From the sequence record SRR20825010_6742: DNA of 44,202 nucleotides; one strand, given 5' to 3'. How positions within the stretch are numbered: position 1 is the stretch's first letter; every line of letters begins with the position of its first letter. Shown piece by piece: positions 20,614-23,233 of this stretch. The notes below the pieces were generated by a model. It made no database searches. It was not told the DNA's origin and worked only from the letters and a program-made list of their open reading frames with translations. Made by a program: the position numbers and the translations under genes.

Positions 20614-22776
20614 TCAGTTCCAAATCGAACGAACTTCTTCCAGCAGGGTTCCGTCCAAGTAAGATACATAGCGTTCGGCTTTATTGTATTCCGCGATCGC
20701 TCGCCAGAAATCAATTTCACAAAGCACGTATTTCTCTCGGCATTGCAGGACCACGTTGGCCGGTGTAGATCCCGCTGCAAACTGCGCCGTCCTGGCACTC
20801 GTTTCGTTGTGAATTGCCACACACTGTTCACGATTGGATTCGTAGAGTTGGTACTGCTGATTCGTTTTTCTGATCGCCTCACTCAGCTTGCTTGTCAACA
20901 ATCGCTTATCTTCCTCTAGCTTCGAATTTTCTCGAGCGATACGAAACGCAGCGTTTCGAATTCTTGCCAGTTCCCGTCTCGATCCAAATGGCGTCTTGGA
21001 ATTTTCTCGTTCGATGATTGTTGACTCGGATCGGGCATGACTTTCCTTGACTTGCTCGAGCGCATCACCGCTACCAACTGGTGTGAGAAAGCGTTCAATG
21101 ACTTCGACGTCAACTTTTTTCGCTAACTCCGCTTTCGCCGCTGCAACTTCCGCTTCCTGTTGCTCGATTCGCGTGCGTGTGTTGCGCAGTTCGGGAATGG
21201 TTTCCATCATCTTTCGAACACTGGCAGCAAACTCATATTGCGTTGGCTCCCGCATCGGATCGTCGATCGGATCAATCACCGTGTCATCCGAGGAAGCCAC
21301 GCCCATCAAATCTCGAAGCATTTTCTCTTGCCCCAGCAGCCCTGCCAGTTCCGGTCCCGCTTCGTTTGTTCCTGAGATGGATTCGTCGAGCTTTGTTTGA
21401 AGTTTCTTCGCGAAGCCTTCGGCTTGTGAGAGCTCTTGAAGTGTGCAAATCCCACGCTCCACACGTTGTTCGATGTCTTCCGCGATAAGCCTCGCTTCTT
21501 CACGTCCTTTCAAGATGGCCGCTGACACCTGATGGGCCGCGTACAAGTCCCAGTATGCGTTCTCGATGTCGCGTGCCAAATTCCGCACGAGGACCTCACG
21601 CGAAACGTCATCCAACTTGGTCAGGTCTGGGTTCTGCTCGAACCGATTCTGAATCGCGATCGAGATGCACTCATCCAGCTTGAGCTTCCAGCGTTCCTGT
21701 TCGAGATATGTAACGGTCGTGCTCGCGTCCTCTGTTTCTTCCGTCGATTCCAATACAGAGACTGCTTCGGGCAGCGGAGCCACTGGCGGCTCAATCGCAA
21801 CGGCAACGGAAGCCGGATTTTCGACCATCGCTGGTGCGAGCAACAAGACGAAAGCAATCGCAGCGACCAAAGCCCCGGACGCAAGTGAGGCCACGGGCGA
21901 GCAACCCAAGGAGGGTTCCACGTCGAGCGACAACCGGCGAATCCGCCGCAGCAAATCCCCGTCCTGAGCCGCCAAAGTAAATGCCGACTTCGGTGGGCGC
22001 GAAGTTTCCAATTTCAACAGAGCCCGGCAGTAGTTCAAACGTTCTTCGCGTGATTCACTGACGCTGTCATCACAGCAAAATTCTCGGGAAACATGGATCT
22101 CTCGCGACAGCCACCAAACCGCCGGGTGGTAGAAGAAGACGGTCTCCATCAGAACCTGGATTGCATTGACGAAACAATCGTGACGTCGCACGTGCAACAA
22201 CTCATGAACGATCAACAGATCCAATTCCTGAGGGGACAAGGTTGTTAGCATCGAAACCGGCACCAACACGATCGGCCGAAGCCATCCCGTTACCATCGGG
22301 CTGCTGTGAGATGAGACCAGCTTGAATTGAACAACGCGTCGCACGCCGACTCGGTTCAATGCTCGCTCAATCGATATTGCCAAATGATCCGGGATCTCAC
22401 CGGTTGCATCTCGCAACAGTTTTCTCTGCGACCACCAACCCAAGATCGGTCGAATCGAAAAGATCGCCATCCCAATCAGCCAACCGATTACCAACACCTG
22501 CAAATGCCAACCCGTCTCGAAGCTCAAACGGATTGGTAGGTTGCTCAGCATGGTCGCAGGTTCGGCTGACCTCGAGAGCATGAACCATGTGGTCATCGGA
22601 CACAGTCCCATCGCCAGCATTCTCACACAAGCCAAACGATGACGTTGCCTCGGCGAAACCGGCGGCAAAGAACGGATCGCGGTGACGCTAATCGCGATGA
22701 TTGAGAATTGCCAAACGCTGTTGAGCAACACCCATCCCAGTTGCGTTGCCCAAGTTAATTCCATCCAACTATTCAT
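20614..22776 (-). CDS. BlaR1-type M56 metallopeptidase fused to a C-terminal TolC/OEP-like helical domain
   Basis: TM helices, SPMVTGWLRPIVLVP, HELLH zinc motif (22192-22206), FFYHPAVWW, REFCCDD, LLRRIRRL; from aa ~363 LDECISIAIQN, RDIENAYWDL, PFGSRRELARIRNA and GTLLE resemble planctomycete TolC proteins; overlaps BlaI stop by 8 nt. Confidence 0.82.
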   Translation of the reverse strand: MNSWMELTWATQLGWVLLNSVWQFSIIAISVTAIRSLPPVSPRQRHRLACVRMLAMGLCPMTTWFMLSRSAEPATMLSNLPIRLSFETGWHLQVLVIGWLIGMAIFSIRPILGWWSQRKLLRDATGEIPDHLAISIERALNRVGVRRVVQFKLVSSHSSPMVTGWLRPIVLVPVSMLTTLSPQELDLLIVHELLHVRRHDCFVNAIQVLMETVFFYHPAVWWLSREIHVSREFCCDDSVSESREERLNYCRALLKLETSRPPKSAFTLAAQDGDLLRRIRRLSLDVEPSLGCSPVASLASGALVAAIAFVLLLAPAMVENPASVAVAIEPPVAPLPEAVSVLESTEETEDASTTVTYLEQERWKLKLDECISIAIQNRFEQNPDLTKLDDVSREVLVRNLARDIENAYWDLYAAHQVSAAILKGREEARLIAEDIEQRVERGICTLQELSQAEGFAKKLQTKLDESISGTNEAGPELAGLLGQEKMLRDLMGVASSDDTVIDPIDDPMREPTQYEFAASVRKMMETIPELRNTRTRIEQQEAEVAAAKAELAKKVDVEVIERFLTPVGSGDALEQVKESHARSESTIIERENSKTPFGSRRELARIRNAAFRIARENSKLEEDKRLLTSKLSEAIRKTNQQYQLYESNREQCVAIHNETSARTAQFAAGSTPANVVLQCREKYVLCEIDFWRAIAEYNKAERYVSYLDGTLLEEVRSIWN

Positions 22777-23182
22777 CGTTGCGGTTCTCCATTTCAGTAA
22801 GGATCTGACGAATTTCTTCGATATCGCTTTGGCTTGCCTTGCTGTTCGAAAGTGCGTTGAGAACCAAACTCGACACGGAGCCCTCGAACACCTTGGTAGC
22901 CAGATCTTTTAGCAAGCCCTTGCCCATTCGCTCACGACTCCAAGCCGCTCGGTAAAGGTGAGGACGTTGGGATTCGTTACGCTTGACCAATCCCTTCCCC
23001 AGCATGACCGACAGCATCTTCATCGTGGTCGAATAGTTGGTGCCCTTTTCACGATGTAGATGTTCGTGAATGACGCCAACGCCGCAGGATCCGTTTGCCC
23101 ACAAGATCCGCAAAATTTGCAGTTCGACGTCGGTCGGTGAAGGAACGGCAGAACGAGTCATCTCAGATCCGGGAAGCGTCAT
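22769..23182 (-). CDS. BlaI/MecI/CopY family transcriptional repressor
   Basis: PTDVELQILRILW..V..IHE..YSTTMKML.VM..KGLVKR..RPHLYRA..VFEGS.SSLV..EEIRQIL. Confidence 0.95.
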   Translation of the reverse strand: MTLPGSEMTRSAVPSPTDVELQILRILWANGSCGVGVIHEHLHREKGTNYSTTMKMLSVMLGKGLVKRNESQRPHLYRAAWSRERMGKGLLKDLATKVFEGSVSSLVLNALSNSKASQSDIEEIRQILTEMENRNDE

Positions 23183-23186
23183 CGAA

Positions 23187-23233
23187 TAGCGAAGTCTTTC
23201 GCTACATTAAGGCGAAAGCTTTCGCTATGTCAA
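23187..23233 (-). promoter_or_regulatory. Sigma70-like promoter of the BlaI/M56 operon overlapped by two palindromic operators
   Basis: Minus strand TTGACA (23228-23233), 18 bp, TAATGT (23204-23209); palindromes TAGCGAA-GTCT-TTCGCTA (23187-23204) and GCGAAAGCTTTCGC (23212-23225). Confidence 0.8.

Follow-up and report, generated by a model that had tools for sequence, protein, structure and literature searches.

Almost the only role known for BlaR1-type proteases is the sensing of beta-lactams, and the cues of the environmental proteins annotated as 'M56 family metallopeptidases' are largely unknown. What, then, would such a protease perceive if its sensor were derived from an export channel? 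This question is raised by a locus in a 44,202-nucleotide stretch of DNA from sequence record SRR20825010_6742 (hereafter the window), where two overlapping minus-strand genes at positions 20,614 to 23,233 encode a BlaI-type repressor and, following it, a sensor protease of 720 amino acids (aa). The original prediction read this pair as a BlaI/BlaR1-type system whose sensor is a TolC helical domain tethered to the inner membrane and lacking the beta-barrel, and the analyses presented here bear out that architecture; its further proposal, that the domain senses TolC assembly or efflux-adaptor engagement, is one candidate among several. We suspect, with moderate confidence, that the two genes form a proteolytic switch of the BlaI/BlaR1 type, in which barrel-less helices of the TolC family respond to the partners of native channels. 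The best database matches to the sensor protease, at 93% identity in Rhodopirellula baltica and 80% in R. europaea, are named 'M56 family metallopeptidase', so the window comes from a Rhodopirellula-like planctomycete.

A BlaR1-type protease joined to a TolC-like domain

Every sequence feature named in the original prediction was found where it had been placed, beginning with an intact M56 protease that carries HELLH and REFCCDD. The Pfam scan matches Peptidase_M56 (PF05569) to aa 86-280 at E 3.9e-35. In an alignment to the solved BlaR1, H191ELLH and E232-x3-D236 fall on H201EXXH and E242XXXD of the Staphylococcus aureus protein, the zinc-protease motifs of BlaR1 as defined in the available part of PMC9834060. 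Both motifs are invariant between the window protein and an ortholog from another genus. The NCBIfam model blaR1_generic reaches 90.8 bits where its cut-off is 400, with a match confined to aa 90-271, and the Pfam and NCBIfam scans found no transpeptidase or beta-lactamase family in the sensor protease.

Four membrane helices are predicted. Hydrophobic segments in the hydropathy profile lie at about aa 13-34, 88-114 and 289-328, with a weaker one, read by eye, at about aa 49-68. The loops at aa 31-52 (+5) and 108-190 (+4) are basic, and the stretch past the last segment (aa 320-372) has a net charge of -8; the last segment and this acidic linker correspond to the transmembrane helix and linker that had been proposed ahead of the TolC-like part. 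The positive-inside rule, applied to these segments and loop charges, predicts a topology in which the protease would be cytoplasmic and the C-terminal domain periplasmic, as in BlaR1.

The TolC-like domain begins at W363, so that the boundary originally set at nucleotide 21,690 proved exact. It consists, in order, of an H1 motif (WKLKLDECISIAIQN), the helices H3 and H4, an equatorial segment, H5/H6, a remnant of the second beta-hairpin, H7 and H8. The Pfam family OEP (PF02321) matches it in two stretches at E 1.7e-7 (31.6 bits, curated cut-off 22), and the full-length OEP subfamily models of NCBIfam score well under their cut-offs (17.6 of 225 bits for TIGR01844 and 13.8 of 210 for TIGR01845). 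With the region aa 340-720 as query, a search gave 27 proteins at E <= 0.001. Six of these, with at least 80% identity, represent the same fusion; the remaining 21 are TolC-like and 422-901 aa long, and the best among them have 790-840 aa and are 34-41% identical over 84% of the query.

Structural comparison leads to the same family, as the original prediction would have it. An AlphaFold2 (AF2) model of aa 346-720, built from 23 aligned sequences, has a predicted local distance difference test score (pLDDT) of 84.7 and a predicted template modelling score of 0.78. All 41 Foldseek matches listed for this model at E <= 0.001 are chains of the TolC/OprM/CusC family, and the Foldseek match to the TolC fold has E 2e-7. 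With VIA-align, the model superimposes on TolC over 303 residues (Z 24.0, root-mean-square deviation 4.3 A); rows 1-29 of that search are all outer-membrane factors (Z 17.4-24.0), and the next row, which is unrelated, has Z 8.3. No signal peptide or lipobox for the outer membrane was found, and the domain continues 362 residues of inner-membrane protease in one frame.

Four cysteines near the two helical tips (aa 444, 652, 679 and 686) are conserved in Rhodopirellula orthologs and absent, in our alignments, from the native TolC-like proteins and from the ortholog in the other genus. A disulfide or redox role is possible. The ESM Atlas clusters nearest to the TolC-like domain contain OEP proteins of 306-333 aa from Bacteroidota, Verrucomicrobiota and Planctomycetota, which might be further barrel-less TolC-like proteins, or fragments.

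The beta-barrel has been lost from the sensor

The native planctomycetal relatives of the domain are TolC-like lipoproteins of about 800 aa (hereafter natives). Those of Pirellulaceae are 34-43% identical to the window protein over aa 392-713, share with it the motifs WDLxLEEC, ENAYWDLY, GTxQELxQA, DGRLIRP and RRELARIRN, and are evidently the source of the sensor domain. Unlike the window domain, they carry a lipoprotein-type signal at the N-terminus (read by eye) and contain some 180 additional aa, with the long strands of the first repeat. One of them, an 837-aa paralog in G001, the nearest genome and the one used for comparison, stands alone beside gltX.

To locate what is missing, residues were counted per structural element in an alignment of 13 fusion and seven native rows. 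The N-terminal motif is kept (WKLKLDECISIAIQN in the window protein, WDLTLEEC..IALQN in the natives), and between it and H3 the window protein has three aligned residues where the seven natives have 173-183, so that about 180 aa, comprising H2 and the first hairpin, are missing. The retained elements have kept their lengths almost to the residue (window/native): H3 61/60, tip 1 with H4 29/29, the equatorial segment 48/48, H5/H6 35/35, H7 72/72, and tip 2 with H8 45/45. The C-terminal tail of the natives (104-219 aa) is missing as well.

The second hairpin is degenerate rather than absent. Its region comprises 43 aa, 33% of them charged, versus 55-58 aa and 12-20% in the seven native rows. The original description of the first hairpin position as short and of the second as hydrophilic therefore holds. 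In the AF2 model this region (model residues 222-249) has a pLDDT below 50 and no strands, and barrel strands are absent from the model of the C-terminal domain, again as had been proposed. By comparison, a control model of the native 837-aa paralog of G001 (aa 85-650, pLDDT 75.1) shows strands of 10-14 residues in both hairpin regions. The remnant is also the least conserved element relative to the R. europaea ortholog, at 65% identity versus 73-95% for the others.

The same pattern extends through the fusion rows. The first-hairpin region is short in all 13 (3-89 aa versus 173-183 in natives), and the second-hairpin region ranges from 0 to 59 aa. H3, H4, H5/H6 and H7 are within a few residues of native length, with the exception of one row in which H7 is shortened.

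The repressor and its candidate operators

The smaller gene of the pair, which would be co-transcribed with the sensor gene, encodes a BlaI-type repressor that matches Penicillinase_R (PF03965) at E 4.1e-31 and aligns full length to the structures of MecI and BlaI, with SSLVLNAL on the SLVLNF of S. aureus. BlaR1 cuts BlaI between Asn101 and Phe102, according to the accessible portion of PMC9834060.

Two operator-like dyads at the blaI promoter (Table 1) are the only matches with up to two mismatches in the 44 kb of the window, where 0.07 would be expected by chance. We read by eye a putative promoter made up of TTGACA (23228-23233, minus strand) and TTAATG (23205-23210, minus strand) with 17 nucleotides between them. 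A promoter scan did not call this arrangement, and its assignment to blaI is offered as a suggestion from the letters and spacing. The dyad TAGCGAA-N4-TTCGCTA also precedes blaI in two other genomes. Searches of G122 and G202, both of which are incomplete (G122 is 73% complete), turned up no other convincing operator, and a reversed control pattern of the dyad gave 7 and 13 hits per strand there.

Fusions elsewhere, and several origins

A profile of five fusion sequences was searched against 1.84 billion representatives, and the best 150 were taken. Proteins that match both halves rank at the top. A local hidden Markov model (HMM) detects the TolC-like domain in 15 of the best 150 representatives, 11 of which have HEXXH too; the remaining four are a kinase (P0085), one native protein and two fragments. 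Because nine of these rows had gone into building the HMM, their match to it is by construction, and independent support for them comes from the profile search and, for most, from Pfam. Fusions of this kind are thus not confined to the source assembly: one occurs in another genus, and clusters formed at 50% identity include at least 11 with the design. Where names are given, they are 'M56 family metallopeptidase' or 'Regulatory protein BlaR1', in Planctomycetota including Stieleria neptunia.

Variants of the design are found among these proteins. In P0085, an 886-aa protein from a metagenome, a barrel-less TolC-like domain is combined with a Ser/Thr kinase and a single membrane segment; here the same sensor is coupled to a different output. 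P0050 and P0125, which are long and distant M56 fusions, carry a Poly_export (Wza-like) domain ahead of the TolC-like domain. Pfam sees only M56 in P0029 and P0032, scores OEP in P0031 at 21.3 bits against the cut-off of 22, and in its precomputed annotation of close orthologs reports PF05569 only. Given that Pfam misses the TolC-like part in some members, counts of architectures based on it would underestimate the number of fusions.

From the perspective of evolution, it matters whether these fusions go back to one event. In a quick maximum-likelihood IQ-TREE analysis of the helical core (28 rows, after two natives without anchor motifs were dropped), natives and the TolC-like domains of fusions are intermingled, and the starred branches force at least four label changes. 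Constraining the fusions to one clade is rejected (log-likelihood difference 118, approximately unbiased test p 1e-31), for a group defined by architecture and a tree with long branches. A FastTree phylogeny of the M56 core, in which 11 fusions were joined by 65 other M56 proteins (every second of the remaining representatives), places seven of the 11, including that of the window, in one clade (support 98) and the other four elsewhere. The design has thus arisen, or had its sensor replaced, several times.

The equatorial motifs are among the stretches that fusions and natives have best in common, as are tip 1 (GTLQELAQA, aa 444-452) and the NVVLQ helix after tip 2 (aa 674-682). NLSLLYRWV, a strand motif of the natives with a conservation of 0.89 among them, is shared by only 0.21 of the fusion rows.

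Conservation of the pair and its distribution in the genus

Orthologs of the sensor protease occur in records named R. baltica and R. europaea, in a TARA record and in another genus. Relative to the ortholog pieces of Rhodopirellula sp. JB055, the ratio of nonsynonymous to synonymous substitution rates (dN/dS) is 0.225 for aa 1-232 (M56) and 0.27 for aa 502-720 (TolC-like). These ratios show purifying selection on the protease part and on the TolC-like domain, the latter of which we take to be functional and not decaying.

A family-level search of 201 genomes used the sensor protein as query. Among the matches listed, each covers either the M56 half or the TolC half, and one match in G122, from another genus, falls in an open frame that holds both. 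This ortholog is 33% identical overall (Pfam M56 7.7e-28, OEP 9.3e-14), and upstream of it lie a blaI ortholog and an exact copy of the dyad TAGCGAA-N4-TTCGCTA. The elements that contain the tips are the best conserved between the two genera, at 41-44% identity versus 12-32% for the rest of the sensor.

Within the genus the pair is accessory, because it was not found with this query in any of three representative genomes (G001, G078 and G172), in which the matches are the native TolC-like protein and other M56 proteins only, and because it is missing at the syntenic place in G001. Synteny with G001 ends at about 20,155 and picks up at about 27,445 on another contig, with a transposase-like open reading frame (ORF) at the break; the flank terminates in an IS200/RAYT-like ORF of 156 aa and the contig end. 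The 7.3 kb without a G001 counterpart (20,155-27,445) hold blaI, the blaR-TolC-like gene, a sulfatase gene and a SASA-sulfatase fusion gene, and are probably a strain-variable insertion or deletion.

Genomic context

The coordinates of the pair and of its parts are collected in Table 1.

Table 1. Positions of the genes, domains, motifs and candidate operators of the pair within the window.
Feature	Position	Strand	Remarks
Sensor protease ORF	20614..22776	-	720 aa; frame open, no stops
TolC-like domain, predicted periplasmic, aa 363-720	20617..21690	-	358 aa; Pfam OEP, AF2, structural match
Second beta-hairpin remnant, aa 555-597	20986..21114	-	43 aa, 33% charged; no confident structure predicted
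Short polar connector, aa 379-390, about FEQNPDLTKLDD	21607..21642	-	Replaces native ~180 aa (H2, strands S1/S2)
Acidic, proline-rich linker, aa 329-362	21691..21792	-	Read from sequence; joins last membrane helix to TolC-like domain
M56 (BlaR1-type) membrane zinc-protease module, aa 1-328	21793..22776	-	Pfam PF05569
EXXXD motif E232-F-C-C-D236, within REFCCDD	22069..22083	-	Aligned to BlaR1 'nEveaD'
HEXXH zinc-binding motif H191-E-L-L-H195	22192..22206	-	Aligned to BlaR1 HEXXH
blaI-type winged-helix repressor	22769..23182	-	137 aa; 8-nt overlap with blaR; Pfam PF03965
Operator-like dyad 1, TAGCGAA-N4-TTCGCTA	23187..23204		0 mismatches; 4 nt upstream of blaI ATG
Operator-like dyad 2	23210..23227		2 mismatches; fills 17-nt spacer between promoter hexamers

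The window neighbours of the pair are the gene of a Wza-like lipoprotein and sulfatase genes, and no beta-lactamase or penicillin-binding protein gene was seen near the pair in the window. The Wza-like gene (Poly_export and SLBB; 19041-20147, plus strand) lies tail to tail with the sensor gene. The same tail-to-tail neighbour occurs in Rhodopirellula sp. JB055 (L023 952-2061) and is absent beside the G122 ortholog. Both the Wza-like gene and the TolC-like sensor are channel-derived, P0050 and P0125 hold modules of both kinds in a single chain, and a functional link between them may exist. The adjoining plus-strand frame of 1027 aa (15793-18876), which has no Pfam match at E <= 1e-5, is kept beside the Wza-like gene in both G001 and JB055.

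The window holds at least eight sulfatase genes (62-1471, 23557-31380 and 39161-44201), along with genes for a rhamnosidase, a 3-keto-disaccharide hydrolase and FecR/Laminin_G proteins; such sulfatase-rich surroundings are a typical neighbourhood for the utilisation of sulfated polysaccharides. The window also contains two members of a DUF1559/N-methyl (prepilin-like) family, at 33491-34771 (minus strand) and 8355-9605. The 5' end of the former (about 34500-34710), which encodes the conserved N-terminus shared by a very large family of paralogs, has matches of 73-83% identity at more than 40 places in G001.

What the sensor may respond to

The partner-responsive switch that we favour would work as follows. 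A flexible linker of about 34-45 residues would allow the TolC-like domain to take up a periplasmic position resembling that of the lower part of a true channel. There, the most likely trigger would be protein-protein contact with the partners of native channels, either the periplasmic adaptors of export pumps or native protomers. By way of the last membrane helix, contact would act on the M56 module, which would cut BlaI after the Asn of SLVLN-A and so free the operators, and release of the operators would raise blaI-blaR and further targets. Adaptors dock on TolC-family channels at the helical tips. We favour a trigger of this kind because native channel lineages have supplied the domain repeatedly, because the tips and equatorial motifs are kept and the native strand motif is not, and because the tip-bearing elements are the best conserved between genera.

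A more specific version of this switch, which we put forward tentatively and consider rather unlikely in all its details, is a checkpoint. In this scenario, the sensor would be a channel decoy that docks tip to tip on pump adaptors free of a channel, or joins native protomers that are unassembled, and its occupancy would lead to BlaI proteolysis.

Several observations weigh against a partner-responsive switch. No adaptor, pump or efflux gene adjoins the pair in the window, and none lies beside the G122 ortholog, where the neighbours are xylose-isomerase-like and ceramidase-like. The residue past the cleavage position of BlaI is Ala, where the BlaI and MecI of S. aureus have Phe. With up to one mismatch, G122 and G202 each hold one dyad outside the blaI promoter, within a long ORF; given that these extra sites are sparse and lie within ORFs, the output may be autoregulation only. 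The TolC-like domain of the window sits on a long branch (1.4 changes per column) and is 43% identical to the native paralog of G001, so close mimicry of the native is not evident in this lineage. The absence of the pair from the syntenic place in G001 and from all three same-genus genomes marks it as dispensable. Finally, TolC works as a trimer, which is at odds with a dimeric BlaR1. The BlaR1 dimer is described in the part of PMC9834060 that was available.

The helices could instead be a scaffold that senses a small molecule (e.g., the compounds that travel through channels) or something physical, for instance the width of the periplasm or damage to the envelope, with the relay unchanged. 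We regard this as rather unlikely. The closest M56 relatives, at 40-42% identity, have very different C-terminal regions of about 150-750 aa, and the M56 representatives in the profile search span from a few hundred to 2849 aa, so that the M56 output module is promiscuous as to sensors; moreover, neither in the window nor in G122 does a partner gene lie with the pair. However, a generic pocket would need neither the repeated recruitment from native channels nor the conserved tips and equatorial motifs, and the Pfam and NCBIfam scans of the sensor protein matched no ligand-binding family.

Alternatively, the protein might be an effector and not a sensor, a tethered channel decoy that occupies, plugs or chaperones adaptor-pump complexes while BlaI sets its level. 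Such a role would fit with operators found only at the blaI-blaR promoter, in the window and in two other genomes, although the two genomes searched are incomplete (73% for G122). It is difficult to reconcile with M56 motifs that are invariant between genera and a protease half with a dN/dS of 0.225, which would be needless in a passive anchor, and the Ser/Thr-kinase version P0085 points to signalling. We therefore consider an effector quite improbable.

An accidental, functionless or decaying fusion, or an assembly artefact, is highly improbable: the transposase-like ORF at the place in G001 where the pair is absent, and the degenerate second hairpin, would be in keeping with it, but the frame is open, dN/dS is 0.27, the helix lengths are kept, and there are orthologs, including one in another genus, as well as independent recurrences. 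That the protein spans the whole envelope and its TolC part still inserts a barrel into the outer membrane is hardly credible, since the first hairpin is missing in all 13 fusion rows, two strands per protomer are insufficient for a TolC-family barrel, and the window remnant is 33% charged and modelled without strands, even though the distant fusions P0036, P0050 and P0125 retain a native-like second hairpin of 45-59 aa.

Relation to known systems and implications

The pair resembles BlaR1/BlaI and MecR1/MecI of S. aureus and Bacillus licheniformis, as far as these are described in the available part of PMC9834060, in its M56 HEXXH/EXXXD protease, in the C-terminal domain, predicted to be extracytoplasmic, past the last helix, in the adjoining repressor with SLVLN, and in palindromic operators over its own promoter. 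It differs from BlaR1 and MecR1 in that there is no penicillin-binding (class D beta-lactamase-like) sensor, the sensor being TolC-derived, and in that the P1' residue of BlaI is Ala and not Phe. Pairs of M56 and BlaI-type proteins without penicillin-binding sensing have been reported from Mycobacterium tuberculosis, M. abscessus and Pseudomonas aeruginosa (PvmSR), in the accessible part of a preprint (bioRxiv 10.64898/2026.08.03.742534). The BlaR proteins of those pairs, as far as that part of the preprint describes them, have no extracytoplasmic sensor, whereas the one found here is large, conserved and of known fold.

With TolC, OprM and CusC (PF02321) the sensor shares the helical protomer fold (Z 17-24), an internal repeat, an equatorial segment and two tips. 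In contrast to them, it is not an outer-membrane protein and is attached to a protease of the inner membrane; it lacks H2 together with the first hairpin, and its second hairpin is degenerate. We found no description of a TolC-derived sensor of the BlaR1 type in the full-text literature searched, a scope that leaves aside subscription papers and domain-architecture databases. What is new is thus the TolC-derived sensor. Regulated proteolysis of the BlaR1/BlaI type is known, and BlaR proteins that lack a sensor have already been described in the portion of the preprint cited above.

Given that the channel origin of the sensor is recognisable, the hypotheses about its cue narrow to adaptor docking, protomer capture and substrate sensing. 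The domain would also offer a natural, soluble, barrel-less TolC alpha-domain for studies of how adaptors and channels dock. The repeated stripping of the barrel, and its combination with two output modules, make a clear case of modular sensor evolution. If the checkpoint is true, it would report whether trans-envelope export machines are assembled, and planctomycetes would on several occasions have made it out of a channel gene of their own, with a protease or a Ser/Thr kinase as output. A sensor that reports the assembly state of pumps would be envelope surveillance of a kind undescribed in the literature searched.

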